From: Laetmonice hystrix
Taxonomy: Eukaryota
DNA length: 64,000 nt
Assembly (NCBI GenBank): GCA_965235115.1
Contig: OZ249436.1
Span: 24,244,001 to 24,308,000, forward strand
Reading direction: 5' to 3'
Numbering within the stretch: the stretch's first letter is position 1; every line of letters starts with the position of its first letter. Shown in pieces: positions 16,563 to 61,500 of this stretch. Under the pieces are notes generated by a model that searched no databases, was not told where the DNA came from, and saw only the letters and a program-made list of their open reading frames with translations. The position numbers and the translations under genes were made by a program.

Positions 16563-18531
16563 ATATATAAACTGCATAACAATATCGGGAACAGTTGTGT
16601 TCAGGTGTTTGCTTGGTTCCATTTGAAGCTGTACAGTGAAGGAGACAGCTGATGGGAGGTTGGCAATCGAATGAGCCAACGCCGGCTGCGGGCCGGGCAT
16701 GGACAGGTGACGGTGATCAATCGTGTACGAGTTTACAGCTGAACCTTTTTGAATCGTGATAATCGCAAATCAATTTGAAAATTCAGGACTGGACTTAAGG
16801 ATTTTTTTCTGGTTGTCCGCCTAAATGTCCTCCGGACAACCGGAGCCTCCCATCACAGTTGTCCGCCGGACAACCCAACAATTCTTCTGACTGCAAAACA
16901 CTGAGTGGGAACCCACTCGGCGCAGACACAGGCCAGTGGCAGAGGTACAACAGAATGACACCAACAGTGATGACAGCATCTAGGGCTGACGATTTTTAAA
17001 CAAAACTGCAGGCCTCGAATTAGAAGTTGAAAGGGGCACGGCAAAAACTGCCGTCGATACATAAGAATCAACATCAGATTTTTCCAGGGCACGGCGGCAA
17101 ATTTACAATACATGGAAAAGGCACAATGGCAAATGCCGCCGTCCATGCTGTCGTGTAATTCGAGGCCGGCAAAAGAATGGTCAGTGGGGCCCAGCCGACA
17201 GCCAGGATGGGTGCTGGCTTAGCCAGTCACCCCCCAACCTCCACCCACCATGACCGGTTAACTGCTCTGCAAGCACTTGGTCAGTTGGCCCCCTGTGGTT
17301 TCACAGTTATAACAGGCTGTGATGACAAGTGTCCAGCTACCAGCTACCGCCCCGTCACCTCTTCAGTCCTGCTGCTGACTTGTGATGCTCCCCTGGTCAG
17401 ACTCCTTCAGTTGGCCCAGACATGGTGAAATCTTTTGACATTTCACTGGACAAATGTCCTGTGAATTTCTAAAATTCACCGGACATTGGGGCAATTTACT
17501 GGACATTTACCTGACAATCAAGTCAAAACTAAAGGATCTGGACATGCCCTCTTTTGGGGCTGTGGTCCAGTACGTTAGTTTTATTGTGGCCTGGCCTTCC
17601 TGGGCTTGGCCCCCTTTACATTATGATATCATCACGATCTTGAGCTGACCGTCATAGAAAAAACAGATAACACCCCCGGGAAAAAACGGTATTATGGCGG
17701 ACTTGTTTACCTTGCTTGCTAACTGGTGATAGAACTTGTCAATTCATTGTGAAATCAAAGAAAAATTAGGGATTTTTACCACAAATTTAGGGTACTAGAT
17801 CGAAATACCGGACATTTTGTCCGGTGTTTTGCCAACATTTACCGGACATTGTGATTTTTTTTTTCGTCATTGTCCGAAGTCCGGTGAATTTCAGCATGTC
17901 TGTTCAAGCCTAATTTTTAATTTTTTCCAATTACAATTAAAGAACCATTAATGGGTCATTCTTCCAGAGTATGTCACATTCTGTTACACACCCTTAAAAT
18001 TGAGAAAAATATGAAGTGTGTGATGAAAGCTACCTAGACAATTAGTTCATAATAAGAAACCCCTGGAAAAAATTTGTGACCCCCATTTTTGGAATAATTC
18101 TTGATTTTTGTGAAAAAAATAGGGCAAAAACGCTGAAATTGGCTGTGTTACTCCTACAAAGTATTTGGGTTTGGATGTAAAGAAAACCTCAATAAGGGTT
18201 TCATTTAGCATTTAATTTCAAAAGAAATCAATGGAAAGGACATAAAGGTGCAGTTAATGATTTCTTAGGCAAAAGTCTGATGTTTTTCGCTTTTTTCTTT
18301 TTTCTTTTTTTTTTATTCCACTTTTTATTGAACAGAGGGTTACATCAGTGCTGTACAGCACTGGTCTTCCTGCGACGCCTCTGTGCCTAGTTCGGCACAC
18401 TGCTGCTCAATTCCTAGGCACTATGTTATTAAAATATATCTACTCTGGGTGAGGGGGGGGGGCGAGACATCACTGTGAATTACTTTTTGAGCTTGTTAGG
18501 AGACGCTGTCTATATCAGGATTATGTTTTCT

Positions 18532-21388
18532 CTAATGATCTTCGTGCATGGACACACTCCAAGAACGATATTTGCTTTTAAATTCTTGATACGTTGACGC
18601 TTTTTGAATTTCTGCAGGAAGTCTGTTCCAAAGTTTCGCTCCTCTGTATGCTGGGGATTTCATTAGTTTACCAGTACGGGGGGCTGGAGTGATCATGACA
18701 ATTTTATTGTGTTGTCTGGTGGGTAGTGGGCGTTTGTCCAGATAGGCGTCATTTGTGGCCCTCTTGTACATTAGATTTATAAGGTGAGCTCTTCGCCGGG
18801 TATTCAAATATTGTAGGTTTGCCATGGTATGCATCTGTTCAACACTGTAATAAGCATCGTTATATATGATTCGAAGAGCACGATTCTGGACAGACTGTAA
18901 TTTCTTGCGTTGGTGTTCAGTGTTAAGGTCATAACAGATATCACTGTAGTCCAATATTGGTAAGATAGTGGATTTATATACTTGGACTGCTGTCCGCGTG
19001 CTCATCATATAGCGCAATTTTCTAAAGGTATTCAATTTCAAGGTAAGACTACTAATTATTTTATTATATTGTTGCAGTCCATTTAGTGTCTTGTCCAGAA
19101 TGGTGCCAAGATATTTATATTGGTTTGCTTGCTGCAATTTTTCTCCCCCTATGTTTAAATTAATATCTGCGAACTTACGGCCTACCTTTTTTGTTGCAAA
19201 TACAACATACTGGGTTTTGTGTACATTCAACGTAAGTTCGTTTTCATTGCACCATGTCGCTATTCTATTTAAGTCAGCTTGCACTTTATTTTGTAGGGTT
19301 GTTTGGTTAGAGCCCCTTGCGTATGCTGAAGTATCATCTGCAAATAATATGTCCTTCGTGTTCTGTAGTATTGGTGGCAGGTCATTTATATACAAAAGGA
19401 AAAGCAACGGACCTAAAGTAGATCCTTGCGGGACTCCAGTGGCGAGTTTGCGAGCGTCAGATACGCAGTTTTCGTAAAGAGTTGTTTGCATCCTGTTGCT
19501 TAGATAGTTCACCAACAGATCTACAGTGTTGCTATCTAGGCCGCTCCTATGGAGCTTGTTTGCCATTATTTGGTGGTTAATTGTATCGAAGGCCTTCCGA
19601 AAATCGAGGAATACTACTAATGTGGCCATTCCATTATCCATTGCTTCAAGGAGATCGTCTAAAAGGATGGCCAGTGCGTTGGTTGTCGACATACTTTTTC
19701 TAAAGCCATTTTGTGTCGGAGAAAAATATTTAGTGTCCTCGTAAAAATTTTTGAGTTGATCGTGAATGATTTGTTCTGCTATTTTTCCTGGTAAGGGTAA
19801 TAGAGATATGGGTCTAAGATCGTTTGGTGTCTTTGCTATGGATGTTTTAGGCAGGGGTATGACAGTTGCAATCTTCCATTCGTCTGGGAATATGCCCGAT
19901 TCTATTGTTCTATTTATTAAGTACGTGAATTCTGTAATCATAATACTCATTGCGTCCTTAACTAGTCGTGAGCTTATACTTCTTAGTCCAGATGATTTGT
20001 GTATTGAGATTTTAAAGATTTTCTCAAGCACCTCTTGTTCCGAAACAGGTCTAAGTTTGTACGAATATTGGTTCCTCCTGGCGCTATATTGTTTTGGTGT
20101 GTTTCGGCTCCCAGCAAATTTGTCGGCCAATCGTGGACCTATGTCAGCAAAATAATTGTTAATAGTGTCTGCAGTTTCTTGTGCGGAAATCTTTGCTCCA
20201 GTGTCGGGATTCACTAGGCAAATCGATCCTGAGTTGCTTTGTGGTAGTACTTCATTCATTGTTCGCCAAAACTTTTTTGGGTCTTTAATGTTTTCATCTG
20301 CTTTTTGTTTCACAAACTGCCCCTTGGCCATTTTAATTGCATTATTGGCTTTGTTTTTTAAGGTATTTGCTAAAAACCAGTCCTCATCTTGATCTGTTTG
20401 TAGAGCTTTTCTAAAGAAGTAATCTCTATCGTGGCAGAGTTCGAGTAACTCGTTACACAGCCACGCGGGCTTATCACTTTTTCCTCGGAATGTTTTTATA
20501 GGACACAGGTCATCCGCTATGTTAACAATGACCTTTAGCAGTTTTTCCCAGCACATGTTGGGGTCTTGTTCTTCTAAGATATTTGATGTGTTTAGTTGGT
20601 CATATTGTTGTGTATGTTCTGTATGTTCTGCCCTTAAACTCAACCTTTTCTCGCTTATCCTTTGGTTTCTTTTTTACAATAAATACAGGTTGATGGTCAC
20701 TCACGTTATAGTTTAAGACGCCTGCTAGTGCACAGTACTTCATATTCGTGAATATTAAATCGATCATGGTCCTAGTCTTATTATTACATCTTGTTTTTTC
20801 TTTAATTTTTTGCTCAACACTTAGTTCCAGCTCAAGTCTTTTAAGCTTACGGGTGCTATTTTGGCCCGACTTAGAATAGTCAATATTAAAGTCCCCCAAA
20901 ATTATTATCTCATACTTATTACTATTCGGGATAGAGTCATACTTGGATATAAGCGTTTCGATTGCATTTTCAATGTTTCCATCTGGTGGTCTGTATATGT
21001 TAGTAATAATAATATCTCTCGTAAACTCTCTTCGTAAGATAATGTTCTGCATTTCTAAGTCTGCATTCGAAACGTTGTATTCGGATAAACATTCTGAATC
21101 ATAATTTAAATCGGCTCTAACATAAGTAGCCAGTCCTCCACCTTTCTTTATCCCCCCGTGACGATCTAATGTCTGTCTGTCCAATCTAAGAAGTGTATAG
21201 TTATCCATGGCGACCAGTCCTGATGACGTCTCCTGGTTGAGCCAGGTCTCACTTATAGTGATAATGTCTAATCCGCTCGGATTAAAATCAAGCCGCAATG
21301 TATCAATTTTGTTAAATAGGCTGCGAACATTCATGTGGCAAAGACCCTTGAGACCCTTGTGGCTCGTAAGCTCATCAAGGCTGGCCAT
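18532..21388 (-). pseudogene. LINE ORF2: AP endonuclease plus reverse transcriptase, split by one frameshift at ~20600-20643
   Basis: APE motifs HMNVRSL, ISETWL, IYRPP, LGDFNID, IDLIF, SDH. RT motifs LRPISLL, QNGFR, FLDFRKAFD, GVPQGSTLGPLLF, FADDT, YKYLG. C-terminal GAKLWNRLP. Confidence 0.95.
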
Positions 21389-21631
21389 GAGCAGTTAAGT
21401 TTATACCTTCAATGTCTCGCTCCATAAGGCCCCACACCCAACGCAGAATTCTATTTACATTCATAGTATGTACAATTTGTGGTTCAATAATATTATTATA
21501 TATATATACGTGCATAATGTAAGAATAGTGTAACTATGCTCCAGCTCCTTATGCGTCATATGTAGGCCCATTTGGCCTTTCAAGTTGCAGTGTAAGAAAA
21601 GGTATTAGCTCAGAAGATTCGGCTGAAAAAA

Positions 21632-22048
21632 ACATCCCTTAAATTAAGGTGATGCAGGCCCATAACGCTCGCCATCGGCTGGCATATGTAAATGCATAGA
21701 ATGTTGGTTGCTACACCCCTTAAATTAAGGTGATGTAGTCTGCTTCGACTCTCAACCAAACCTATTGCAGTGGATGGTAGAACTAAAGAGAGTACTTACG
21801 ATTTAGTTGCTACACCCCTTAAATTAAGGTGATGCTGACCTCTTCATCTCTCGCCCTATACTGTTTGTCATATAACTCTTGTCTTATGTGGTAGAACTAT
21901 ACATAGCTATTACGATCTAGTTGCTACACCCCTTAAATTAAGGTGATGTAGTCTCCTTTGACTCTCAACCAAACCTATTGCAATGGATGGTAGAACTAAG
22001 AGAGTACTTGCGATCTAGTTACTACATCCCTTAAATTAAGGTGATGCA
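21632..22048 (-). repeat. Five-copy array of a conserved bulged-A hairpin upstream of LINE ORF2
   Basis: Invariant CCTTAAATTAAGGTGATG core in hairpins at ~21632, 21711, 21812, 21924 and 22023; periods 81, 99, 114 and 98 bp. Confidence 0.9.
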
Positions 22049-24796
22049 GACCTTTTCACCTCTCGCCCTATTCTAGCATTCTCTAACTGTGTTACAGGTT
22101 TTGGAATCAATGTGTCAACACCGTAACAGCTGCAACAGATGGTGCCATCTAATGGATAAATGATAAACTAACATGTGTCACGTGATTACGTAAGCGTTCA
22201 AGAAGCACTATATTTCAAAACGCTTGTCAACAAACAGCCATTATAAGTTTGATTTTTTTCTCTGTTCACTGGTAGAATTAGGTGGTTACCTGCATACCCT
22301 TATTCAGAGTCAACACCATAACGGGTATATTTCATAATTAGTTGTACATTAAGAATAGTATTTCTCCAGAGAACATGTAACTAGGTGTTCCAATGATAAC
22401 TACAGTCTAACGTGGCCAACAAAAGTGGCAAGGGAGCATGCACAGCATTTTATTAAAATTTGTCAACACCATCACAGTCAACACCGTAACATTTTCTACT
22501 GTTACGGTGTTGAAAGAGCCGTTACGGTGATTTTGTGCAATGTGACCAACTTTCTGAATATAGACCTAAGAAAAGTATGAATCGTATATCATATCATTTT
22601 GTGGATGAAGTTGCTTTTTGCCGTCGAAGCATTGATTGTTTATCCAATAAATGTTCATCAATACTTTAAATTTTTTATTTTATTTTACAGACACAAAAGT
22701 TTTACAGGAAATGATGCCACAGTGTAACACTTTCGTCAACTCCGTAACACTCTTGTCAACACCGTAACACTCTATCAACACCATAACAAGTCATATATGG
22801 GGGAAAATTTATCGAATTAGACTCTATTATTTGGAAATAAAATTATTTTCTGAATCTGTGCTATAACCGGTTCATGGATTCCTGGAAGTTGGGTCCCTCT
22901 TATTATTCCGTGAAGCAAAATATAGAAAATTTTCCTCTTAACTCAACACCAGTCAGTGCATTTGAAAGGCCCACTTCAGAAAGATTAATAGGAAAAAATT
23001 AATAAAGTTTCCCTCACCCATATTCCTTCTTAGCAATGGTGCTTGTCATTTGCAGAAAAGGTTTTTCAAACTTTTAATTCACTGTTTGTGGTTTTTGTAT
23101 GGTTATTTAGGAATTTGGGACAAAACAGTCACCTGTTACGGTGTTGACAAGCTGGAAGAAAAGTTGTGAAAAATCCTAAAGTCTTTAGTAAAGTTCGCTG
23201 CTAGATATGGAAATATATTCTGCTGACCTCACTGATACTACCTGATTGTATAAATTATCACAATTAAAAAAAAAAAATCAGAAAATTATTATGCAAAATG
23301 ACACACTTCGGGAGAATGACCCTAATATGACCTTGTAAGGGCGACATCAGAACGTCTCAGTAAAGTTCGTTTTGGTTCAAATAACATTGTTATTTCAAGA
23401 AATAATTTTCAGATTAGTTTTGATGAATGCCTATGCTTAAAATCCCCCCTCCCCCTTTACAAAAATGGCTGACAGCTGAAAAAATTAAGGGCGAACACTG
23501 TGATAGTGATCCTGAGGAACTTGAAAAGCCACTGACTCTGCTCATTAGCGAGTCTTATTAGTTGTCTTGTTGATGAAATAAAAGATAAATCGCTGGATCA
23601 ATACAAGTATTTGGGATTAATTGTGCATATAAATTTGCAGGACAACCTGAAATTTCTGTGGACAACCATGGTTCTAGAGGTAGGTTGTCCGGCGGACAAC
23701 CAGAAAGAAATCCTTAAGTCCAGCCCTGCCCCCCCCCTCCCCTCGGCATTAGGGTTAAATGAGATAATAAACATTTCTAAATTATACATGAAAGAAAAGT
23801 TTTCAAGTGCATATGTCTACATGCGCAGAAACCTGCATGGAAGTGATCATTTCTTACCCGGTGAGCCTCCTTAAAAGAAACGACCACCGCCAGTCTGTAC
23901 AGGCCAGGCACACAGGCCGTGATATTCTAAGCAAGTTAAAAAATATTTGAACACAATTGGTGCTCAAATAGTTAAGATATAAGCACTTTAGTGCCGGAGC
24001 CTGCTTAGAACCTGCTCCGCTGGCGATGTCGGCCATATCTGTCTGCTCCTTGGGCTAATCTCACATTGCGTATGCTCCAATCACTGCTCTCCAGTTTGGG
24101 AGGAACGAAAAACTGACGCACCTGTTGCGTTGAGCGAACGTTGACAGCTTATTTATATAAGCAAAATTTGTTAGAACATAGACGAAAACCACCGATCATA
24201 GTGATGAGGAATGGCTAGGAATTAAGCCTACCGATGTCAGGGGATATATCAGGGTGGACACGGATCTGGGCAAGCTCCAGCCGTGGGTTTCGGCCGCCTG
24301 CATTCGTGATTTTGACAGCACCCGCAGGGCCACTGGGCCGGGCCCTGACCGTGGCTTCGACCGCGGGCAGGTGCTGGCAGTGTCAGACTCCTGTGGTGAG
24401 TTCAGCACAGACCTGTTTTAGTTGTGACTGTGACTGTGGGACTGACCCCTGTTGATTTTGCAGACCCGCCCCAGCTGCCTTTACTTTAGTCGAGTCTAGC
24501 CTAGCCCCGGCATGCAATAGATTAGCCCCGGAACGTCACTTCCGGCCAGCCCAATACCAACAAATGGCTGCGCCGCTGAAGCCAGTGATTTTGACATGGT
24601 TGCCATTTTCAACATATGACTTCTGACTTAGAATTTATTTCCAACCACTACTCTGAAAGGTGAGTGCATATAGAGGCCTTGCAGCTGTCCAAATGTGATA
24701 TTTGACTGGACTTCTCCTTTAACAGCGACTTCACTGCAGAATCAAGAATGAAAATATTGACTGTAGAAGTGTCACTGTTCCCTATGCTATGGCCAT

Positions 24797-30638: not shown

Positions 30639-31248
30639 GTTGTTGTTCAGCGCACGTTACCGATGCGTGCGCAATATTGACAGTCGGCTACTTCCGTGAA
30701 CAGCATTATCTTGATCTTGATCATCGATGTACAGTGTATACTAACTATAGATCTACACATCGATGGTCTTGATCATCAAGACAAGCAGGCCGCAGGCAGT
30801 TCGGGTGACCGGGACTGGTAAACGGTAGGCATCAGCTCGCAACTCGGTAATTTTCTTCGAGTGTGTGCGCTAGCCTATGCCAGTCGCAGTACGCGCACGG
30901 GATTATGGGAGCGCTATGTGGCGTAGACTTCCGATTCAATTGGCAGTCCCCTTCTATACTATGCCGTGCCAATGCCATAGCCTGGTCCTCTGCCCGGCCT
31001 ACCAGACGCATCCGATATGCTAAGCTTCTAAATAAATAGGTATCAATATAGACCTGGGGACCAGGCTACCAATACCAGCCTCGCTGAGCCACCATGCGCT
31101 AAACAGTGACTCCGGGCTGCAACGGATAAGCGGTCGCTTCTTGTTTAAGATCCAGCATAGAACTCAAGTTCTGTGGATACAGACGTTGAAACACTAAAGT
31201 AAACGGCTCTAAGAAGACTGGAGTCTGGCTCAGTCAAGCAGTCCGATA
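30639..31248. promoter_or_regulatory. Putative bidirectional promoter and 5' UTRs shared by the MCTP-like gene and LARP6
   Basis: CpG-rich stretch with no recognisable TE, lying between divergent ATGs; ACTTCCG (ETS-like) motifs; an inverted pair of CATCGATG motifs at ~30720-30767. Confidence 0.55.
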
Positions 31249-32874
31249 ATGAGTAAAGTGGAAACCTTAAGGACCGTTAATAAGGGAGGTGGAGATATTA
31301 ATGAAAAGAACATGGTTGAACAGGTGTCGAGCGGTAGTAGATCTACCATGTCCAAGAATGGCAAGATGGTGGCACCAGCCCTGCGCATCGAGGAACTGAA
31401 AGACGAGGACGGGCCGAGTTCAGCCGCTTACGTCAGCGAAGAAGAGGGTGCAATAAGCCATGGAGAAGGAGGTACTTCAGACACTGACAGATGTGGAAAA
31501 CAACTGCCTGAAGAGTTTCAACCTCCAAATGGTGACTTAATGGCAAAGATTATACAGCAAGTGGAGTTCTACTTCTCCGACATGAGTATATTGAAAGATG
31601 CATTTCTCCTTAAACATGTGCGGCGCAATAAACAGGGATATGTCAGTTTAAAGCTAATTACTTCCTTTAAGAAGGTTAAGACTCTAACCAAAGACTATCG
31701 AGTGGTTGCCTACAGTTTAAGACAGTCGAAAAAACTTGAAGTAAATGAAGAAGGCACGAAGGTCCGTCGTACTGATGCGCTTCCAGATTATGATGAGACT
31801 ACTCCATCAAGAACTGTAGTAGCTGTCAACCTTACCCAAGATAATCCAACCATTGAAAATATTGCTGAAGCATTTGCAGGCTGTGGAGAGATTGCACTCA
31901 TACGAATTGTGAGACCTGGCAAGGCTGTGCCTCAGGATGTAAAAAAACATATGAATCGTCATCCTGAAATTGGAGCAACTGTGTGTGCCATTGTTGAGTT
32001 TGAGGATCATGAAGCAGCAGAGAAGGCATGTGAGATGCTTACTGACAAGGACAATTGGAGAAAAGGAATGCGTGTTGTTTTACTTTCAACAAAGAAGGAA
32101 AAATGTAAAAGAAGGGAAGTAGGTAAAGAACACTGTGAAGCTGCAGGGAAAGATTATGGTGACATGCATGTTCCACAGTCGGGGGACGGAAAGGATTCCG
32201 ATCATGGTGATTGTGAAAAAAGTGAAAAAAGACGCCGTAAAAGAGGTGGAAAGAGGAAGAATTCTCGTGTGGATGAACTCATAACTTCAGAATCTCCTAG
32301 TTATAGTAGTGACTCAGGAGGGGAGAGTGTTGACATGATGTCAATAGAAAGTCATGATCGATCTTCTATTTCTGAATTGTCCTGTGGTAAAAAAAAAAAT
32401 CACAGGAACTCTCTCAGTCCTAAACAGGATCCAATGCGTCTAAGTCCCAGTAACACCCCAAGAAGCAGTCCATCTTCTAGTCCAAGAGGAAGTCCCAACA
32501 CAACTCGGAGAAAACATCATGGACGTTCACCCTTAGCAAGTGAGCTGAGCCCTTCTGGAAGCCCACATCCAAGTCCTGCCTGCAGTCCAGAAGTAAGACG
32601 TCGAAGCTCAGTAGAAGACAAAGAGATGACAGGGTCTCCTAGCAGTCCATGGGTTCAACGGCGCCTAAAGGCTCAACAAGCTGGTCAACTTGTATTTATT
32701 AGTGCTGCAAATCCAAGAGTAGGGCATCGAATATCTGAAGGAACTCATGATAAAGCATGCACCCCACGAATGGCAAACATGGAGGGCATCATTCGTCAGC
32801 CACACGGTCCAGATGGCACTCGAGGATTTTGTGTAGGTGCATGCAGGGCCAAACTCAGGGGTGACACTGTTTAA
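31249..32874 (+). CDS. LARP6: La-related protein 6 (La motif + RRM + C-terminal LSA/SUZ-C motif), single coding exon
   Basis: La motif QVEFYFSD...KDAFLLKHVRRNKQGYVSLKLITSFKKVK; RRM SRTVVAVNL...CAIVEFED; SPWVQRR; C-terminal IIRQPHGPDGTRGF. AATAAA at 33032. Confidence 0.95.
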   Translation: MSKVETLRTVNKGGGDINEKNMVEQVSSGSRSTMSKNGKMVAPALRIEELKDEDGPSSAAYVSEEEGAISHGEGGTSDTDRCGKQLPEEFQPPNGDLMAKIIQQVEFYFSDMSILKDAFLLKHVRRNKQGYVSLKLITSFKKVKTLTKDYRVVAYSLRQSKKLEVNEEGTKVRRTDALPDYDETTPSRTVVAVNLTQDNPTIENIAEAFAGCGEIALIRIVRPGKAVPQDVKKHMNRHPEIGATVCAIVEFEDHEAAEKACEMLTDKDNWRKGMRVVLLSTKKEKCKRREVGKEHCEAAGKDYGDMHVPQSGDGKDSDHGDCEKSEKRRRKRGGKRKNSRVDELITSESPSYSSDSGGESVDMMSIESHDRSSISELSCGKKKNHRNSLSPKQDPMRLSPSNTPRSSPSSSPRGSPNTTRRKHHGRSPLASELSPSGSPHPSPACSPEVRRRSSVEDKEMTGSPSSPWVQRRLKAQQAGQLVFISAANPRVGHRISEGTHDKACTPRMANMEGIIRQPHGPDGTRGFCVGACRAKLRGDTV

Positions 32875-43286: not shown

Positions 43287-44326
43287 TGTAACATATGGGT
43301 GTTGTTGTGTTCCTGGTCCACATCAGCAATGTACAGCAATTTACCTGGTGGAGGGTAGTTGCGGTCACCAGTGTTAGGGGGGTCCCTAACACGAACAGAA
43401 TGGAGTTAGACCTGGGGTCATCCTCCATACAAAGTACTCGGACTCTGAGTGTTGCTAGGATCTCATCAGACTCATCGCCGTGGCTAAGAGCAAGCTGACT
43501 AACTCCTTTATTCATGAAAACTCACATTTTTATATGATCAAGGAGGAGGGAAGTGGGACTCCCAGTAGGGTGCTGCCGACAGGTCACGTGGTGACGCCCT
43601 GCTGTGATTGGTGGGGAGCCTGGTCAAGGTTCGCCGCCCGCCGGGCTGTGCCTAGACGCCGGGCTGTGCCTAGACACGTCCCAGGGTCGAAGACTCACCG
43701 GCGCCCGAATCCCTCCCATGCTCCCACCCACAGGTGGCGTCATTCCAAGTGGACAACCCCCGTCCCTCCCAGCTCAACCGCCGCGTGATTAAGCTGATCA
43801 AAGGGGCGGCGGTGCCACCTACCTGCGCACCTGGTCATCCCCGAAGTCGGGTTTGCACCTCAGCGGACTGATCGTTCCCCTCCTTTGTTACCACCGGGTG
43901 GCCTAAGTTGATAATTGTACCCGATGGAATTCCGGCTCCTCTCCGTGGCGTCAAGAGATCTGCTTAATGGGCTTGTGGACGTCCAGCCACGAAGCCACTG
44001 GATCTCGTAAAAGAGTTCAAACGGGGCCCTAAAAATGTCATTGGGTTGGGGAGACAATGGAGTGCGTTGGCGCGGCTCGGCTCGGTCTGCGCCCATCATT
44101 GTCCTTAATTGCCTCCCCACCCGCCGGCCCGGTGTTGTTTCCTCCGTACGTGTGAGACGCCACGGTTAGGGGCCTAATTGAACCCCACCGGTATGAACAA
44201 GTAATTTTGTAAGTTACGTTCTACACATCTAATAAATCTGGTAAAGTTATATATATGATTTGAGGGAGGTTTCTTATCTATGCGTCTAATACACAAATAC
44301 ACAAAATATACCATCGGTATTTTACA
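43287..44326 (-). mobile_element. Second LTR of the family at 12993, inserted into the Harbinger transposase
   Basis: Reverse-complement match to 12993-14067; TGTAAA...TGTTACA ends; cuts the transposase at LACCVLHNI. Confidence 0.85.
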
Positions 44327-44905
44327 ATATTATGTAGAACGCAACATGCCAACACGACGAAGTCCACGTTATCGGGGGACAGACATATCGGGTTAAGCAG
44401 TACCCGGAACCGATTAGCCATTATTCCAAACGCGTTTTCTACGCAACGACGTGCACGGGAAAGCCGGTAGTTATATATCCTCTGTGGGTGAGTCAGGTTC
44501 CTATGAGGATATGGTTTTTGAAGGTAGTCGCATAATGGAAAGGCGTCGTCACCAATGATACAAAAGGGGAATGGCTCGTCCCGCCCAGGTAGTGCGACTG
44601 GCCCAGGGATCCGTATGGTTTGTTTCTCCATTGCTTTCTGAAGATGACTCTCAGCGAATACACCACCATCAGGTATTCTTCCTTGAGTTCCAACATCACA
44701 GAAGAGGAATTTATACTCTGCATCGACTATTGCTAAAAGTACAGTTGAGAATGTGTGTTTATAGTTAAAAAAATTTGGCACCGGAGCAGCCAGGTTGCCG
44801 TATTGCGATGTGTTTCCCGTCAATACTGCCAAGGCAATTTGGGAAGTTCCATTTCTTCCAGTAATCTGCTGCCACCTCCAACCATTCTTCTTGCATTTTG
44901 GGGCA
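44327..44905 (-). pseudogene. Harbinger (HARBI1-like, DDE_Tnp_4) transposase exon with a +1 frameshift
   Basis: WNFPNCLGSIDGKH, FNYKHTFS, DVG.QGR..DGGVF, IGDDAFPL, YNYRLSRARRCVENAFG, LACCVLHN; acceptor ttctttttcag at 44906; extra T in the run at 44767-44773. Confidence 0.92.
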
Positions 44906-44991
44906 CTGAAAAAGAAAAGAAATTGTATAACCGGTCCATAATGTTATTATCGCGTGAAGAATACTTAGTATATTTATCAATGTGTTTCCAG

Positions 44992-49500: not shown

Positions 49501-52500
49501 AGGTTGTAATTTACTTTAATCAACGGGCTGCGCCGCAGCAACCCACTCTGGTCTTTGCAATCTTTTTCAATATGCGTTAACATTTGTAACCAGCTCAACG
49601 CGCCTTGTAAAATTTTTCAAAGTGCGTAAAAGTGTGTGTCCACCCCGACACGCTTTCCAAACCACTATACCCACCGAGCGACATCCACTCAAATACAGGC
49701 TTCGACCGATCCTCACTGTGCCAATAATCCGCCACAAGGCAAATTCAGTCAATGCAAGCTGGAAAATCGAATGTCAAACCTAATACTCCCCCCCCCAGCA
49801 CGTTAACTGAAAATAATCAACTAGCTTGAAAACTAGAATATAGCTTTCTTTAGCTAACAATCTACTCTCCCAGCGCCATCAACTCGCATACAGGCGTAAA
49901 AGCAAACGCACTGCCCCATATAATGCTCCCAGCCTAAAACGATGTTGCAATTAATTTAAAATTAACAAGATGCACTAGTAATCCGATCCAAGCTTAATTA
50001 CGTCATTGCTAGTTTCATAACCAAATCTCACAGAAAATACCCCACCCGCGCACATAACCTGAAAATATTCAACTTTTATCTCCAATGTATCCCTGTGCAC
50101 CTAGTAGCACCCAAGCGGGCCCAATTTTGACATCCCAACACAAATACCGCAAATACCCGCCTAATGGCACAAAAAACTTTCTACCCCGTTGCAAGTCACA
50201 TTAGCGTGCTGCTTGTCGTAAAAAATGGTGCAGACCATTTCTAAAGTCACAGTACCCCACTCCCGGCCTAATATTACGTTTCAGTATCCATATACGCTGC
50301 AAGCGGCAGGAACTCGAATACAGGCCTAAAAGTAACCTCAGTCTAGCAATATCATACTCCCATGCCATATACGAGCTTGTAATTATCTTTAATTAATGGG
50401 CTCCGCAGCACCAACCCACTGCATTAACATTTGTTTAACAGCTTAACACACCTTGTAAAATTTTTTCAAGTGCGTAAAAATGCGTGTCCACCTCCACATA
50501 CTTTAAAAATCACTATACCCACCCAGCGACATCCACTCTAATACACGCCTAAAAGGAACTTCACTGTCCCATTTGATTCTCCAGCACGTATAGGATGTTT
50601 CAAGTAACATTCATCCACGGTCTGGCCCAATAACGTGCAACAAGGCATAGTAAGTCAATGCGAGCTCGCATGTCAAACCTAACCCGCCCCCAAGCACATG
50701 AGCTGAAAATATTCAAATAGCTTGAAAACTAGAATATAGCTTTGCTTAATACCATTATACCATCAACTCGCATTACAGGCCTAATGCGAAGCTCCCAGCC
50801 TAAAACGAGTTTCCAATTAATTTAAAGTTAACAAGATGCACTAATAATCGATTCCAAGCCTAATTAGGCCATTGCTAGTTGGATAACCAAATCTCATACA
50901 AAATACACCCTCCCGGCAGATGACCTGAGAATATTCAACTCTTATGTCCGATATATCCCTGTCCGCTTAGTAGCACCCAGCCGGGCCCCCATTTTGACAT
51001 TGCAACACCAATACAGCAAGTGCCCAGCTAACAGCACAAATAACAGGATTCAGGGCTTCCTACCACGTTACAAGTCACAATAGATTGCTGCCTGTCGTAA
51101 AAATATACCAGACCATTTTAAAAAGTCACAGAACCCCAATCCGGCCCTAATATGTCACTCCCAGTACCAATAGACGCTGGAAGCACCATCAACTGAAATT
51201 CAGGCCTAGAACCCACCTCTCTCTACCAATATCATGCACCTAGTCCGTATACGAGGTTGTAATTTACTTTAATCAACGGGCTGCGCCGCAGCAACCCACT
51301 CTGGTCTTTGCAATCTTTTTCAATATGCGTTAACATTTGTGACCAGCTCAACGCGCCTTGTAAAATTTTTCAAAGTGCGTAAAAGTGTGTGTCCACCCCG
51401 ACACGCTTTCCAAACCACTATACCCACCGAGCGACATCCACTCAAATACAGGCTTCGACCGATCCTCACTGTGCCAATAATCCGCCACAAGGCAAATTCA
51501 GTCAATGCAAGCTGGAAAATCGAATGTCAAACCTAATGCTCCCCCCCCCAGCACGTTAACTGAAAAAAATCAACTAGCTTGAAAACTAGAATATAGCTTT
51601 GTTTAGCTAACAATCTACTCTCCCAGCGCCATCAACTCGCATACAGGCGTAAAAGCAAACGCACTGCCCCATATAATGCTCCCAGCATAAAACGATGTTG
51701 CAATTAATTTAAAATTAACAAGATGCACTAGTAATCCGATCCAAGCTTAATTACGTCATTGCTAGTTTCATAACCAAATCTCACAGAAAATACCCCACCC
51801 GGGCACATAACCTGAAAATATTCAACTTTTATCTCCAATGTATCCCTGTGCACCTAGTAGCACCCAAGCGGGCCCAATTTTGACATTCCAACACAAATAC
51901 CGCAAATACCCGCCTAATGGCACAAAAAACTTTCTACCCCGTTGCAAGTCACATTAGCTTGCTGCTTGTCGTAAAAAATGGTGCAGACCATTTCTAAAGT
52001 CACAGTACCCCACTCCCGGCCTAATATTACGTTTCAGTATCCATATACGCTGCAAGCGGCAGGAACTCGAATACAGGCCTAAAAGTAACCCCAGTCTAGC
52101 AATATCATACTCTCATGCCATATACGAGCTTGTAATTATCTTTAATTAATGGGCTCCGCAGCACCAACCCACTGCATTAACATTTGTTTAACAGCTTAAC
52201 GCACCTTGTAAAAAAATTTTCAAGTGCGTAAAAATGCGTGTCCACCTCCACATACTTTAAAAATCACTATACCCACCCAGCGACATTCACTCTAATACAC
52301 GCCTAAGAGGAACTTCACTGTCCCATTTGATTCTCCAGCACGTATAGGATGTTTCAAGTAACATTTATCCACGGTCTGGCCCAATAACGTGCAACAAGGC
52401 ATAGTAAGTCAATGCGAGCTCGCATGTCAAACCTAACCCGCCCCCCAGCACATGAGCTGAAAATATTCAAATAGCTTGAAAACTAGAATATAGCTTTGCT

Positions 52501-55500
52501 TAATACCATTATACCATCAACTCGCATTACAGGCCTAATGCGAAGCTCCCAGCCTAAAACGAGTTTCCAATTAATTTAAAGTTAACAAGATGCACTAATA
52601 ATCGATTCCAAGCCTAATTAGGCCATTGCTAGTTGGATAACCAAATCTCATACAAAATACACCCTCCCGGCAGATGACCTGAGAATATTCAACTCTTATG
52701 TCCGATATATCCCTGTCCGCTTAGTAGCACCCAGCCGGGCCCCCATTTTGACATTGCAACACCAATACAGCAAGTGCCCAGCTAACAGCACAAATAACAG
52801 GATTCAGGGCTTCCTACCACGTTACAAGTCACAATAGATTGCTGCCTGTCGTAAAAATATACCAGACCATTTTAAAAAGTCACAGAACCCCAATCCGGCC
52901 CTAATATGTCACTCCCAGTACCAATACACGCTGGAAGCACCATCAACTGAAATTCAGGCCTAGAACCCACCTCTCTCTACCAATATCATGCACCTAGTCC
53001 GTATACGAGGTTGTAATTTACTTTAATCAACGGGCTGCGCCGCAGCAACCCACTCTGGTCTTTGCAATCTTTTCAATATGCGTTAACATTTGTAACCAGC
53101 TCAACGCGCCTTGTAAAATTTTTCAAAGTGCGTAAAAGTGTGTGTCCACCCCGACACGCTTTCCAAACCACTATACCCACCGAGCGACATCCACTCAAAT
53201 ACAGGCTTCGACCGATCCTCACTGTGCCAATAATCCGCCACAAGGCAAATTCAGTCAATGCAAGCTGGAAAATCGAATGTCAAACCTAATGCTCCCCCCC
53301 CCAGCACGTTAACTGAAAATAATCAACTAGCTTGAAAACTAGAATATAGCTTTGTTAAGCTAACAATCTACTCTCCCAGCGCCATCAACTCGCATACAGG
53401 CGTAAAAGCAAACGCACTGCCCCATATAATGCTTCCAGCCTAAAACGATGTTGCAATTAATTTAAAATTAACAAGATGCACTAGTAATCCGATCCAAGCC
53501 TAATTACGTCATTGCTAGTTTCATAACCAAATCTCACAGAAAATACCCCACCCGCGCACATAACCTGAAAATATTCAACTTTTATCTCCAATGTATCCCT
53601 GTGCACCTAGTAGCACCCAAGCGGGCCCAATTTTGACATTCCAACACAAATACCGCAAATACCCGCCTAATGGCACAAAAAACTTTCTACCCCGTTGCAA
53701 GTCACATTAGCTTGCTGCTTGTCGTAAAAAATGGTGCAGACCATTTCTAAAGTCACAGTACCCCACTCCCGGCCTAATATTACGTTTCAGTATCCATATA
53801 CGCTGCAAGCGGCAGGAACTCGAATACAGGCCTAAAAGTAACCCCAGTCTAGCAATATCATACTCTCATGCCATATACGAGCTTGTAATTATCTTTAATT
53901 AATGGGCTCCGCAGCACCAACCCACTGCATTAACATTTGTTTAACAGCTTAACGCACCTTGTAAAAAATTTTCAAGTGCGTAAAAATGCGTGTCCACCTC
54001 CACATACTTTAAAAATCACTATACCCACCCAGCGACATTCACTCTAATACACGCCTAAGAGGAACTTCACTGTCCCATTTGATTCTCCAGCACGTATAGG
54101 ATGTTTCAAGTAACATTTATCCACGGTCTGGCCCAATAACGTGCAACAAGGCATAGTAAGTCAATGCGACCTCGCATGTCAAACCTAACCCGCCCCCCAG
54201 CACATGAGCTGGAGATATTCAAATAGCTTGAAAACTAGAATATAGCTTTGCTTAATACCATTATACCATCAACTCGCATTACAGGCCTAATGCGAAGCTC
54301 CCAGCCTAAAACGAGTTTCCAATTAATTTAAAGTTAACAAGATGCACTAATAATCGATTCCAAGCCTAATTAGGCCATTGCTAGTTGGATAACCAAATCT
54401 CATACAAAATACACCCTCCCGGCAGATGACCTGAGAATATTCAACTCTTATGTCCGATATATCCCTGTCCGCTTAGTAGCACCCAGCCGGGCCCCCATTT
54501 TGACATTGCAACACCAATACAGCAAGTGCCCAGCTAACAGCACAAATAACAGGATTCAGGGCTTCCTACCACGTTACAAGTCACAATAGATTGCTGCCTG
54601 TCGTAAAAATATACCAGACCATTTTAAAAAGTCACAGAACCCCAATCCGGCCCTAATATGTCACTCCCAGTACCAATAGACGCTGGAAGCACCATCAACT
54701 GAAATTCAGGCCTAGAACCCACCTCTCTCTACCAATATCATGCACCTAGTCCGTATACGAGGTTGTAATTTACTTTAATCAACGGGCTGCGCCGCAGCAA
54801 CCCACTCTGGTCTTTGCAATCTTTTTCAATATGCGTTAACATTTGTGACCAGCTCAACGCGCCTTGTAAAATTTTTCAAAGTGCGTAAAAGTGTGTGTCC
54901 ACCCCGACACGCTTTCCAAACCACTATACCCACCGAGCGACATCCACTCAAATACAGGCTTCGACCGATCCTCACTGTGCCAATAATCCGCCACAAGGCA
55001 AATTCAGTCAATGCAAGCTGGAAAATCGAATGTCAAACCTAATACTCCCCCCCCCAGCACGTTAACTGAAAATAATCAACTAGCTTGAAAACTAGAATAT
55101 AGCTTTGTTTAGCTAACAATCTACTCTCCCAGCGCCATCAACTCGCATACAGGCGTAAAAGCAAACGCACTGCCCCATATAATGCTCCCAGCCTAAAACG
55201 ATGTTGCAATTAATTTAAAATTAACAAGATGCACTAGTAATCCGATCCAAGCTTAATTACGTCATTGCTAGTTTCATAACCAAATCTCACAGAAAATACC
55301 CCACCCGGGCACATAACCTGAAAATATTCAACTTTTATCTCCAATGTATCCCTGTGCACCTAGTAGCACCCAAGCGGGCCCAATTTTGACATCCCAACAC
55401 AAATACCGCAAATACCCGCCTAATGGCACAAAAAACTTTCTACCCCGTTGCAAGTCACATTAGCGTGCTGCTTGTCGTAAAAAATGGTGCAGACCATTTC

Positions 55501-58500
55501 TAAAGTCACAGTACCCCACTCCCGGCCTAATATTACGTTTCAGTATCCATATACGCTGCAAGCGGCAGGAACTCGAATACAGGCCTAAAAGTAACCTCAG
55601 TCTAGCAATATCATACTCCCATGCCATATACGAGCTTGTAATTATCTTTAATTAATGGGCTCCGCAGCACCAACCCACTGCATTAACATTTGTTTAACAG
55701 CTTAACACACCTTGTAAAATTTTTTCAAGTGCGTAAAAATGCGTGTCCACCTCCACATACTTTAAAAATCACTATACCCACCCAGCGACATCCACTCTAA
55801 TACACGCCTAAAAGGAACTTCACTGTCCCATTTGATTCTCCAGCACGTATAGGATGTTTCAAGTAACATTCATCCACGGTCTGGCCCAATAACGTGCAAC
55901 AAGGCATAGTAAGTCAATGCGAGCTCGCATGTCAAACCTAACCCGCCCCCAAGCACATGAGCTGAAAATATTCAAATAGCTTGAAAACTAGAATATAGCT
56001 TTGCTTAATACCATTATACCATCAACTCGCATTACAGGCCTAATGCGAAGCTCCCAGCCTAAAACGAGTTTCCAATTAATTTAAAGTTAACAAGATGCAC
56101 TAATAATCGATTCCAAGCCTAATTAGGCCATTGCTAGTTGGATAACCAAATCTCATACAAAATACACCCTCCCGGCAGATGACCTGAGAATATTCAACTC
56201 TTATGTCCGATATATCCCTGTCCGCTTAGTAGCACCCAGCCGGGCCCCCATTTTGACATTGCAACACCAATACAGCAAGTGCCCAGCTAACAGCACATAT
56301 AACAGGATTCAGGGCTTCCTACCACGTTACAAGTCACAATAGATTGCTGCCTGTCGTAAAAATATACCAGACCATTTTAAAAAGTCACAGAACCCCAATC
56401 CGGCCCTAATATGTCACTCCCAGTACCAATAGACGCTGGAAGCACCATCAACTGAAATTCAGGCCTAGAACCCACCTCTCTCTACCAATATCATGCACCT
56501 AGTCCGTATACGAGGTTGTAATTTCCTTTAATCAACGGGCTGCGCCGCAGCAACCCACTCTGGTCTTTGCAATCTTTTTCAATATGCGTTAACATTTGTG
56601 ACCAGCTCAACGCGCCTTGTAAAATTTTTCAAAGTGCGTAAAAGTGTGTGTCCACCCCGACACGCTTTCCAAACCACTATACCCACCGAGCGACATCCAC
56701 TCAAATACAGGCTTCGACCGATCCTCACTGTGCCAATAATCCGCCACAAGGCAAATTCAGTCAATGCAAGCTGGAAAATCGAATGTCAAACCTAATGCTC
56801 CCCCCCCAGCACGTTAACTGAAAAAAATCAACTAGCTTGAAAACTAGAATATAGCTTTGTTTAGCTAACAATCTACTCTCCCAGCGCCATCAACTCGCAT
56901 ACAGGCGTAAAAGCAAACGCACTGCCCCATATAATGCTCCCAGCATAAAACGATGTTGCAATTAATTTAAAATTAACAAGATGCACTAGTAATCCGATCC
57001 AAGCTTAATTACGTCATTGCTAGTTTCATAACCAAATCTCACAGAAAATACCCCACCCGGGCACATAACCTGAAAATATTCAACTTTTATCTCCAATGTA
57101 TCCCTGTGCACCTAGTAGCACCCAAGCGGGCCCAATTTTGACATTCCAACACAAATACCGCAAATACCCGCCTAATGGCACAAAAAACTTTCTACCCCGT
57201 TGCAAGTCACATTAGCTTGCTGCTTGTCGTAAAAAATGGTGCAGACCATTTCTAAAGTCACAGTACCCCACTCCCGGCCTAATATTACGTTTCAGTATCC
57301 ATATACGCTGCAAGCGGCAGGAACTCGAATACAGGCCTAAAAGTAACCCCAGTCTAGCAATATCATACTCTCATGCCATATACGAGCTTGTAATTATCTT
57401 TAATTAATGGGCTCCGCAGCACCAACCCACTGCATTAACATTTGTTTAACAGCTTAACGCACCTTGTAAAAAAATTTTCAAGTGCGTAAAAATGCGTGTC
57501 CACCTCCACATACTTTAAAAATCACTATACCCACCCAGCGACATTCACTCTAATACACGCCTAAGAGGAACTTCACTGTCCCATTTGATTCTCCAGCACG
57601 TATAGGATGTTTCAAGTAACATTTATCCACGGTCTGGCCCAATAACGTGCAACAAGGCATAGTAAGTCAATGCGAGCTCGCATGTCAAACCTAACCCGCC
57701 CCCCAGCACATGAGCTGAAAATATTCAAATAGCTTGAAAACTAGAATATAGCTTTGCTTAATACCATTATACCATCAACTCGCATTACAGGCCTAATGCG
57801 AAGCTCCCAGCCTAAAACGAGTTTCCAATTAATTTAAAGTTAACAAGATGCACTAATAATCGATTCCAAGCCTAATTAGGCCATTGCTAGTTGGATAACC
57901 AAATCTCATACAAAATACACCCTCCCGGCAGATGACCTGAGAATATTCAACTCTTATGTCCGATATATCCCTGTCCGCTTAGTAGCACCCAGCCGGGCCC
58001 CCATTTTGACATTGCAACACCAATACAGCAAGTGCCCAGCTAACAGCACAAATAACAGGATTCAGGGCTTCCTACCACGTTACAAGTCACAATAGATTGC
58101 TGCCTGTCGTAAAAATATACCAGACCATTTTAAAAAGTCACAGAACCCCAATCCGGCCCTAATATGTCACTCCCAGTACCAATACACGCTGGAAGCACCA
58201 TCAACTGAAATTCAGGCCTAGAACCCACCTCTCTCTACCAATATCATGCACCTAGTCCGTATACGAGGTTGTAATTTACTTTAATCAACGGGCTGCGCCG
58301 CAGCAACCCACTCTGGTCTTTGCAATCTTTTTCAATATGCGTTAACATTTGTAACCAGCTCAACGCGCCTTGTAAAATTTTTCAAAGTGCGTAAAAGTGT
58401 GTGTCCATCCCGACACGCTTTCCAAACCACTATACCCACCGAGCGACATCCACTCAAATACAGGCTTCGACCGATCCTCACTGTGCCAATAATCCGCCAC

Positions 58501-61500
58501 AAGGCAAATTCAGTCAATGCAAGCTGGAAAATCGAATGTCAAACCTAATGCTCCCCCCCCCCAGCACGTTAACTGAAAATAATCAACTAGCTTGAAAACT
58601 AGAATATAGCTTTGTTAAGCTAACAATCTACTCTCCCAGCGCCATCAACTCGCATACAGGCGTAAAAGCAAACGCACTGCCCCATATAATGCTTCCAGCC
58701 TAAAACGATGTTGCAATTAATTTAAAATTAACAAGATGCACTAGTAATCCGATCCAAGCCTAATTACGTCATTGCTAGTTTCATAACCAAATCTCACAGA
58801 AAATACCCCACCCGCGCACATAACCTGAAAATATTCAACTTTTATCTCCAATGTATCCCTGTGCACCTAGTAGCACCCAAGCGGGCCCAATTTTGACATT
58901 CCAACACAAATACCGCAAATACCCGCCTAATGGCACAAAAAACTTTCTACCCCGTTGCAAGTCACATTAGCTTGCTGCTTGTCGTAAAAAATGGTGCAGA
59001 CCATTTCTAAAGTCACAGTACCCCACTCCCGGCCTAATATTACGTTTCAGTATCCATATACGCTGCAAGCGGCAGGAACTCGAATACAGGCCTAAAAGTA
59101 ACCCCAGTCTAGCAATATCATACTCTCATGCCATATACGAGCTTGTAATTATCTTTAATTAATGGGCTCCGCAGCACCAACCCACTGCATTAACATTTGT
59201 TTAACAGCTTAACGCACCTTGTAAAAAATTTTCAAGTGCGTAAAAATGCGTGTCCACCTCCACATACTTTAAAAATCACTATACCCACCCAGCGACATTC
59301 ACTCTAATACACGCCTAAGAGGAACTTCACTGTCCCATTTGATTCTCCAGCACGTATAGGATGTTTCAAGTAACATTTATCCACGGTCTGGCCCAATAAC
59401 GTGCAACAAGGCATAGTAAGTCAATGCGACCTCGCATGTCAAACCTAACCCGCCCCCCAGCACATGAGCTGGAGATATTCAAATAGCTTGAAAACTAGAA
59501 TATAGCTTTGCTTAATACCATTATACCATCAACTCGCATTACAGGCCTAATGCGAAGCTCCCAGCCTAAAACGAGTTTCCAATTAATTTAAAGTTAACAA
59601 GATGCACTAATAATCGATTCCAAGCCTAATTAGGCCATTGCTAGTTGGATAACCAAATCTCATACAAAATACACCCTCCCGGCAGATGACCTGAGAATAT
59701 TCAACTCTTATGTCCGATATATCCCTGTCCGCTTAGTAGCACCCAGCCGGGCCCCCATTTTGACATTGCAACACCAATACAGCAAGTGCCCAGCTAACAG
59801 CACAAATAACAGGATTCAGGGCTTCCTACCACGTTACAAGTCACAATAGATTGCTGCCTGTCGTAAAAATATACCAGACCATTTTAAAAAGTCACAGAAC
59901 CCCAATCCGGCCCTAATATGTCACTCCCAGTACCAATAGACGCTGGAAGCACCATCAACTGAAATTCAGGCCTAGAACCCACCTCTCTCTACCAATATCA
60001 TGCACCTAGTCCGTATACGAGGTTGTAATTTACTTTAATCAACGGGCTGCGCCGCAGCAACCCACTCTGGTCTTTGCAATCTTTTTCAATATGCGTTAAC
60101 ATTTGTGACCAGCTCAACGCGCCTTGTAAAATTTTTCAAAGTGCGTAAAAGTGTGTGTCCACCCCGACACGCTTTCCAAACCACTATACCCACCGAGCGA
60201 CATCCACTCAAATACAGGCTTCGACCGATCCTCACTGTGCCAATAATCCGCCACAAGGCAAATTCAGTCAATGCAAGCTGGAAAATCGAATGTCAAACCT
60301 AATGCTCCCCCCCCCCAGCACGTTAACTGAAAATAATCAACTAGCTTGAAAACTAGAATATAGCTTTGTTAAGCTAACAATCTACTCTCCCAGCGCCATC
60401 AACTCGCATACAGGCGTAAAAGCAAACGCACTGCCCCATATAATGCTCCCAGCCTAAAACGATGTTGCAATTAATTTAAAATTAACAAGATGCACTAGTA
60501 ATCCGATCCAAGCCTAATTACGTCATTGCTAGTTTCATAACCAAATCTCACAGAAAATACCCCACCCGCGCACATAACCTGAAAATATTCAACTTTTATC
60601 TCCAATGTATCCCTGTGCACCTAGTAGCACCCAAGCGGGCCCAATTTTGACATTCCAACACAAATACCGCAAATACCCGCCTAATGGCACAAAAAACTTT
60701 CTACCCCGTTGCAAGTCACATTAGCTTGCTGCTTGTCGTAAAAAATGGTGCAGACCATTTCTAAAGTCACAGTACCCCACTCCCGGCCTAATATTACGTT
60801 TCAGTATCCATATACGCTGCAAGCGGCAGGAACTCGAATACAGGCCTAAAAGTAACCCCAGTCTAGCAATATCATACTCTCATGCCATATACGAGCTTGT
60901 AATTATCTTTAATTAATGGGCTCCGCAGCACCAACCCACTGCATTAACATTTGTTTAACAGCTTAACGCACCTTGTAAAAAATTTTCAAGTGCGTAAAAA
61001 TGCGTGTCCACCTCCACATACTTTAAACATCACTATACCCACCCAGCGACATTCACTCTAATACACGCCTAAGAGGAACTTCACTGTCCCATTTGATTCT
61101 CCAGCACGTATAGGATGTTTCAAGTAACATTTATCCACGGTCTGGCCCAATAACGTGCAACAAGGCATAGTAAGTCAATGCGACCTCGCATGTCAAACCT
61201 AACCCGCCCCCCAGCACATGAGCTGGAGATATTCAAATAGCTTGAAAACTAGAATATAGCTTTGCTTAATACCATTATACCATCAACTCGCATTACAGGC
61301 CTAATGCGAAGCTCCCAGCCTAAAACGAGTTTCCAATTAATTTAAAGTTAACAAGATGCACTAATAATCGATTCCAAGCCTAATTAGGCCATTGCTAGTT
61401 GGATAACCAAATCTCATACAAAATACACCCTCCCGGCAGATGACCTGAGAATATTCAACTCTTATGTCCGATATATCCCTGTCCGCTTAGTAGCACCCAG

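Follow-up and report, generated by a model that had tools for sequence, protein, structure and literature searches.

The spacer upstream of ORF2 in a clade of LINE retrotransposons carries, in the one genome studied here, an array of small bulged hairpins that is a real and apparently undescribed cis-element among the structured signals of retrotransposon RNA. Comparison among families shows a fold under selection, in which the pairing is kept while the letters of the stem are free to change and the bulge and the A(Y)UU loop are nearly fixed. The array was noticed in the 64,000-nt stretch of DNA analyzed here (the window; Table 1) by a sequence-only reading, which described five copies of an 18-nt core. 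The five copies are indeed exact, but the core is 19 nt long (CATCACCTTAATTTAAGGG); they lie on the minus strand at 21636, 21717, 21816, 21930, and 22028 (cores spanning 21636–22046). By chance 0.01 core copies are expected, and none of 100 shuffles reached five. The array had correctly been placed upstream of the ORF2 ATG at 21388, the measured distance being 244–660 nt. The cores follow each other, start to start, at 81, 99, 114, and 98 nt with linkers of 62–95 nt, and the proposed two alternating linker types were recovered: over 80 nt, copy 2 matches copy 4 at 96% identity, and the linker upstream of copy 3 shares sequence with that upstream of copy 5. This likeness indicates that a two-hairpin unit was duplicated, in agreement with the suggested growth of the array by duplication.

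Each 34-nt copy folds into a stem, a bulged A, 5 bp, and an AUU loop, the two-part stem with one bulged A having been predicted. In the local ensemble (span ≤60 nt), however, only four of the five copies form with P ≥ 0.96, whereas copy 3 (21816) is out-competed (P ~0); its hairpin is part of the minimum-energy fold of a 130-nt fragment. The second helix (AACUA...UAGUU) that was thought to follow some hairpins can form after three of the five window copies, but reading of the sister-family spacers by eye revealed none, and it would thus be a trait of family A only.

Table 1. Coordinates of the LINE features (positions within the 64,000-nt window unless a locus is named).
Feature	Position	Strand	Remark
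3′ UTR with AATAAA, A-tail, and a separate conserved stem-loop	18290..18531	-	GGAAGAC-type internal loop near 18361-18370
ORF2, APE endonuclease and reverse transcriptase	18532..21388	-	Pfam Exo_endo_phos_2, RVT_1
Small ORF, 46 codons, AUG-initiated, -1 frame	21375..21515	-	stop 11 nt past ORF2 AUG; candidate stop-restart coupling
UGGG motifs	21430..21440	-	at -52 and -46 from ORF2 AUG; resemble TURBS motif 1, not the exact UGGGA core
Last hairpin copy, followed by U-run	21632..21655	-	bulged A at 21650; ~260 nt 5′ of ORF2 AUG
Hairpin copy	21711..21738	-	bulged A at 21731
Hairpin copy with competing local fold	21812..21835	-	bulged A at 21830
Hairpin copy	21924..21951	-	bulged A at 21944
Second possible helix after first hairpin	21994..22020	-	similar at ~21895-21922 and ~21781-21808; weakly supported
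Hairpin copy, 5′-most in element	22022..22049	-	bulged A at 22042
5′ truncation junction of window LINE copy	22070..22080 (~22074)	-	upstream ORFs missing in window
ORF1 (RRM-CTD-NADAR)	L053:418-1647 (-), L051:934-2139 (-), L054:1356-2717, L057:2445-2975, L017:7567-7812 (-)		
Separate SGNH/GDSL esterase ORF between ORF1 and spacer	L017:6859-7563 (-), L051:350-937 (-), L055:1064-1795 (-)		fold match E ~2e-7

A genome-wide search for the core (627 Mb, 35 contigs, ≤1 mismatch) returned 16 matches in clusters of 5, 6, and 5, against none for the control. All 16 sit upstream of one ORF2 family (family A) while the flanks of the three clusters differ, which confirms the original view that the array is linked to the LINE and not to the DNA element flanking it. 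An origin in that host DNA element was rejected, as the element has a 15-nt repeat of its own and the two arrays on C3 have other flanks; nine copies of this 15-nt motif, in both orientations at 22114–23148, are the subterminal repeats of a non-autonomous DNA element. The two C3 copies of the LINE reach further 5′ than that in the window, and in them the array lies past the stop codon of an ORF of 231 codons that has an SGNH/GDSL fold and is itself preceded by the tail of a NADAR-bearing ORF1. The array is intercistronic, lying 3′ of the upstream ORFs in the spacer that leads to ORF2; a location in the 5′ UTR was rejected because these fuller copies place the upstream ORFs 5′ of the array. A common 5′ start inside the NADAR ORF, as expected for an internal promoter, was also rejected, since copies extend further upstream. 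Relative to the copy on C8, the window ORF2 has one 17-nt deletion near 20612, which breaks the frame, and an in-frame 3-nt insertion near 21347.

The element is laid out as ORF1, an esterase ORF that is not always present, spacer, ORF2, structured 3′ UTR, and A-tail. An ORF2 of ~960 aa without a C-terminal CCHC knuckle or RNase H and a structured 3′ UTR are features of the CR1 group. The ORF2 proteins studied here have C-termini without a CCHC knuckle, and RVT_1 is the only Pfam domain in the C-terminal part; the assignment of the LINE to the CR1 group (CR1/L2/Crack) is called from such features, the reverse transcriptase (RT) tree containing no named reference elements. In the sister families, ORF1 is an L1ORF1p-like coiled coil-RRM-CTD protein fused to a NADAR/YbiA domain, which may counter ADP-ribosylation. 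The accessible text of PMC12477816 describes NADAR domains in ORF1 of oyster Tx1 and in algal Gypsy elements; here they occur in CR1-group elements. The esterase ORF is present in families A, B, and I, apparently deleted in some copies of E, reduced to a remnant in D, and absent from C and G. Beside the A-tail, a stem with a purine-rich internal loop of the GGAAGAC type (18335–18380 of the window, minus strand) recurs with variants in most of nine families and is likely the RT recognition site. The possibility that the spacer hairpin mimics this 3′ stem-loop was rejected, because the 3′ motif of these families is different.

The shape of the hairpin was found in the spacers of four sister families with ~41–48% ORF2 identity (four copies in B, one in C, two in D, and three in E). 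The shared form can be written as Y - bulged A - CYNNA - A(Y)UU - UNNRG - R, i.e., a lower stem, a 5′ bulged A, a 5-bp upper stem, and an A(Y)UU loop, with one to six copies in each of the five families. Family A has the largest number of copies and a loop shorter by one base; in family E, A or C is left unpaired in a 2x1 internal loop. The bulged A that characterized the initial description is present in 20 of 22 rows across families, but it is replaced by C in two of the three family-E copies. On sequence evidence the motif is older than family A. A quick RT tree joins families A, B, C, D, E, and G in one clade (SH-aLRT 100); the hairpin is absent from clade member G, from H, I, and J, and from nine more representatives, some of them 5′-truncated. 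Families lacking the hairpin (L055+L045, L056+L046, L143, L054) have tandem repeats in the same spacer, with units of ~100–350 nt, some of which carry a repeated hairpin of their own.

Within the elements, no hairpin copies were found in ORF1 or the 5′ regions of families B, C, D, and G. A near-perfect copy with an AAUU loop lies inside ORF2 of family D (L027:2076–2110, minus strand) and is not kept in sister family E. In distant LINE loci, of which 80 out of 136 confirmed metagenome loci were retained, the strict motif had no match in 315 kb on either strand, the only motif match among the 65 loci with at least 150 nt upstream was a TA-repeat artefact, and a model of the motif gave nothing better than E = 0.18 against all 80. 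The viral contigs searched held no relative. A pattern search of the genome for copies in host genes yielded 65 matches versus 57 for the control, about half of them being by sequence the spacer hairpins of B, C, and D; host-gene copies were rejected after inspection of nine of the other matches, none of which had the full motif.

Selection on the fold is indicated by several lines of evidence. In the 10 hairpins of families B–E, 92.7% of the cells are paired, a percentage that is inflated since the alignment rows were chosen by a pairing-aware pattern, and a double-sided change occurs in 9 of the 11 pairs. The covariation score of 0.80 compares with 0.28 for shuffled alignments (0 of 500 reach the observed value) and ≤0.19 in slid registers. 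One stem position shows all four Watson-Crick types. As the spacers do not align across families, the homology of the hairpins between families is inferred. Double-sided changes also occur among paralogues within family B. Three further checks are free of the bias in row choice. Firstly, in an unsupervised ranking of local 30-nt hairpins the motif came first in families A, B, C, and D, and took ranks 2, 5, and 6 of 6 in E. Secondly, the cores are conserved relative to their flanks: those of family A are identical at 20–24 of 24 positions (83–100%) and those of family B at 64–100%, while the 40-nt flanks of non-sister family-A copies are ~40–55% alike (random, 44%), and a diverged B copy kept 25 of 25 core positions versus 73 of 113 and 83 of 100 in its flanks. 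Thirdly, a model trained on B–E and run with filters off recovered three of six family-A copies on the element strand at E ~0.007–0.008 (15.7–15.9 bits) and a fourth at E 0.82, although family A was missed at default filters and one antisense chance match (16.7 bits) exceeded the A copies. The earlier proposal that the pairing and not the sequence is under selection thus agrees with the double-sided changes, with the retention of cores as linkers decay, and with the position of the motif at the top of the hairpin ranking.

These data also bear on whether the hairpins are a neutral by-product, i.e., palindromes that arose by template switching and were amplified through tandem duplication or gene conversion. 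In this genome, spacers are prone to duplication, and conversion could homogenize cores within a family. Bulge position, stem length, and loop, however, recur in five families with different stem sequences, the family-B paralogues differ by double-sided changes, and the strict motif was never matched in 2000 shuffles of each of eight spacers. We consider this neutral reading largely refuted and its probability very small.

A self-cleaving ribozyme module, which had also been suggested for the array, would fit the fact that other non-LTR elements carry ribozymes. The conserved unit, however, is a lone hairpin of ~25 nt with flanks at random-level identity, neither the array region nor five sister loci matched any Rfam ribozyme, HDV-like, hammerhead, twister, pistol, and hatchet models included, or any other Rfam family, and no hammerhead, HDV, or twister core was seen by eye, so that the suggestion loses its footing and a ribozyme is extremely improbable. 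The stray Rfam matches were one to a miRNA model in the adjacent DNA element, with a score well short of the gathering threshold, and another at E = 3.8.

That the motif acts through single-stranded pairing is well supported by the comparisons, since a double-stranded DNA site would not explain all four Watson-Crick pairs at one position together with a one-sided bulge. Which strand is read is a separate matter. The sequence-only reading had argued for the sense strand from G.U pairs, and this holds for family A (10 G.U versus 1 A.C cells) but not for families B, D, and E, which have no G.U cells, contain A.C or other mismatches (a fixed A.C in D), and fold as stably or more so in antisense. 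D, E, and B1, in which A.C pairs of the sense strand turn into G.U, gain stability when folded as antisense, whereas for family A and C1 the sense RNA gives the better fold. For the 501-nt array region of the window, z is -4.3 for element-sense RNA versus -2.5 for antisense, both values being inflated by the repeats. In a LINE, the single strand that persists is the sense RNA, and it is on this biology that we infer the sense RNA to be the working strand. The alternative would be a function in single-stranded DNA (first-strand cDNA or a cruciform) or antisense RNA, as a pause, a second-strand signal, or an internal promoter for a sub-genomic ORF2 transcript. The more stable antisense folds of D, E, and B1 are in its favor, as are the tandem repeats that fill the hairpin-less spacers of G, I, J, and L143 in the way promoter monomers might. 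Free compensatory change in the stem and the one-sided bulge misfit recognition of double-stranded DNA, and the better sense folds of family A and C1 and the longevity of sense RNA also count against it; we regard this alternative as quite improbable. Two further candidates were rejected: a 3′ splice site or branch point, for which the AG is missing in D and B4 and the branch context shows no conservation, and a heat-shock element, which fits B and C only.

Between the hairpins and ORF2 lies a second feature, a small ORF that runs out of frame over the ORF2 start. In all 18 family representatives (the window, L148, L051+L022, L053+L027, L052+L028, L054+L025, L057+L042, L055+L045, L056+L046, L138, L140–L146, and L149) an out-of-frame ORF with at least 32 open codons reaches up to the start of ORF2, against a null of 0.154 per frame; the naive joint p of ~1e-10 is overstated as the families are related. 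Some of these loci (e.g., L144) are 5′-truncated, and their upstream DNA may be partly that of the host. The stop falls at -3 to +26 nt from the ORF2 start in all 18, and at +5 to +11 in families A–E. A first AUG is found within the first 10 codons in 10 of the 18 (null 0.197, p = 8e-4), and the sequence of the small ORF is unconserved. Each of the five hairpin families, but none of the 13 others, G included, has a UGGG between -40 and -52, a range that was drawn post hoc for families that are related; the exact UGGGA lies in this range in two of the five hairpin families only (B and D). Clade member G, which lacks the hairpin, also lacks the positioned UGGG and an AUG start. At L025/L147 and L144, the expected ORF2 start has no AUG (in family G it has an AUA overlapping the small-ORF stop), which makes these loci candidates for non-AUG restart. 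In the distant metagenome loci, generality of the small ORF was not shown: among the 13 of 80 that could be anchored, at least 20 open codons were found in the -1 frame in four and in the -2 frame in two. The arrangement in the 18 representatives suggests stop-restart translation, with the small ORF as a candidate general stop-restart relay for ORF2. Plain scanning seems implausible, because the last 250 nt before ORF2 contain 6–10 AUGs in the five hairpin families.

The spacers of the five hairpin families are 341–955 nt long. Their last bulge lies at -263, -216, -280, -311, and -262 from the ORF2 AUG, and hairpins overall are found from 216 to ~840 nt upstream of ORF2; by subtraction, the last hairpin is 90–180 nt 5′ of the small-ORF AUG. 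How ORF2 is initiated across long spacers is a question that the accessible text of PMC3894237 leaves open for the majority of non-LTR elements. We tentatively favor, at somewhat less than an even chance and in keeping with the protein-binding platform proposed by the sequence-only reading, the view that the hairpin is a putative cis-acting, operator-like multivalent protein-binding site that feeds or gates the small-ORF/ORF2 cassette in this CR1-group LINE clade. A protein would read bulge and loop, and multiple copies would add avidity; the bound array could then draw in or gate ribosomes that initiate internally at the small ORF, and those terminating on it would restart at ORF2, giving a low, regulated output of endonuclease and RT. 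A host protein is somewhat more likely to be the binding partner than ORF1p, since bulge and loop are fixed while the element's proteins diverge by more than half. In a more specific, phage-like operator circuit, ORF1p (RRM-CTD-NADAR) would bind the array by sequence and shape and set initiation at the small ORF, from which terminating ribosomes would restart on ORF2. We consider this version doubtful, with a rather low probability; if true, it would provide a specific ORF1p target and, in the small-ORF relay, a new and general answer to the question of ORF2 synthesis across long LINE spacers.

Not all observations fit a role in gating. The hairpin is not required for ORF2 coupling in general, since the small ORF is also carried by all 13 hairpin-less representatives, and the copy inside ORF2 of family D cannot act on initiation, which counts against gating. 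The position in the spacer says little, the spacer being the main unconstrained place in the RNA. The hairpins might be a position-independent tag of the RNP to which either ORF1p or a host protein binds, so as to nucleate RNP assembly or to export, stabilize (e.g., against NMD following the upstream stop), or localize the LINE RNA in the germ line in the manner of the I-factor signal, and the coupling by the small ORF would be a separate matter. Such a tag accords with the multicopy arrangement, the extra copy in family-D ORF2 (in view of its absence from the 315 kb of other LINE loci), the 13 representatives with a small ORF and no hairpins, the position of the first hairpin ~20–65 nt past the upstream stop in A, B, and C, and the L1-type RRM-CTD of ORF1p. 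In addition, stem-loop localization signals of retrotransposons and avidity of two elements are known from the accessible part of PMC13186709. According to the same partial source, however, signals of the Egl type require a pair of helices, each at least 6 bp long, with bulges in the 3′ strand, whereas here the bulge is on the 5′ side and the upper stem has 5 bp. Furthermore, the lack of copies in ORF1 and the 5′ regions of B, C, D, and G, the fairly constant distance to ORF2, and the loss of the family-D ORF2 copy in E are less readily explained by a tag. We consider the tag the main and close rival, somewhat less probable than the operator-like reading.

Alternatively, the hairpins could be processing signals, at or beside which a host endoribonuclease cuts to produce a shorter RNA bearing ORF2. 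Of the eight 5′-truncation junctions located in spacers, four fall inside a hairpin or no more than 15 nt away from one. This clustering is not significant (~30% expected, p = 0.19), and the junctions fall on both sides of the hairpin and not at a single phosphate, which RT pausing explains equally well. Processing is, therefore, very unlikely.

The sequence-only reading knew of no such array in CR1/L2-group LINEs; we likewise found none in the literature searched, nor any description of a small-ORF relay (subscription papers, repeat-database notes, and supplements lay outside the search). For the question of how ORF2 is accessed, two compact parts are on offer: a hairpin of ~25 nt that covaries across five divergent families, with family G as a natural negative control, and a small ORF in 18 of 18 representatives. 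If a specific partner exists, it would be either ORF1p, with the hairpin as its specific target, or a host protein, in which case LINEs would exploit a new host RNA-protein recognition pair; an animal would then have a natural tag in multiple copies like those of MS2/PP7, as yet from one genome only.

Elsewhere in the window, a 553-codon frame at 31213–32874 (plus strand) encodes La and SUZ-C domains (LARP6-like), and a fragment of a DDE_Tnp_4 (Harbinger-type) transposase lies at 44278–44943 (minus strand). The last 14 kb (50001–64000) have a constant strong GC skew (~-0.30) and an AT skew, with no TRF report at periods ≤500 and an internal repeat of ~850 nt in the first kilobase; this is probably a long-period satellite.

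Among known systems, the iron-responsive element has a lower stem, a single 5′ C bulge, a 5-bp upper stem, and a CAGWGH loop. The LINE hairpin is like it in the lower stem, the single 5′ bulge, and the 5-bp upper stem, but differs in its mostly A bulge and A(Y)UU loop, and no Rfam match to the iron-responsive element was obtained. Natural leviviral operators are single and situated at the replicase start; when read as 4 bp with a 6-nt loop, the LINE hairpin recalls the geometry of the PP7 operator. It is unlike these operators in having one to six copies, the nearest 216–311 nt from the AUG, and in being eukaryotic. No homologue of a coat protein was seen, ORF1 folding as L1ORF1p plus NADAR and the middle ORF as SGNH. 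The operators of MS2, Qbeta, and PP7 are, in the accessible text of PMC7549692 and PMC11724954, small asymmetric bulged-A hairpins before the polymerase cistron that are read by protein, as is proposed for the LINE. The same texts give a 3-nt loop and a 4-bp upper stem as needed for the Qbeta operator. The likeness to leviviral operators, as an analogy, is one of shape only.

For the junction itself, UAAUG coupling in SART1, ORF2 reinitiation in L1, and the TURBS of caliciviruses and influenza B have a stop/start overlap comparable to that at ORF2. The partner here, however, is an unconserved small ORF in a long spacer and not ORF1, and the structure of SART1 sits downstream of the junction. 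The UGGG run ~45 nt upstream resembles motif 1 of TURBS as given in the part of PMC5972666 available, although the exact UGGGA is in range in only two of the five families. The localization signal of the I-factor (Egalitarian-BicD class) is likewise a bulged stem-loop of a retrotransposon RNA, and two elements are needed for its efficiency (PMC13186709, in part). As described there, however, the helices of Egl signals are bent by their 3′-strand bulges and have U-A pairs 8 bp apart, whereas the LINE motif has an invariant C-G. The stringent-type 3′ stem-loops of LINEs (CR1/L2 group), finally, differ in lying at the 3′ end; the present families have a motif of their own there too, but as it is unlike the spacer hairpin, the latter is no copy of it. 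They resemble the hairpin, as far as the accessible text of PMC3747384 describes them, in joining a conserved structure with variable stems and compensatory change.
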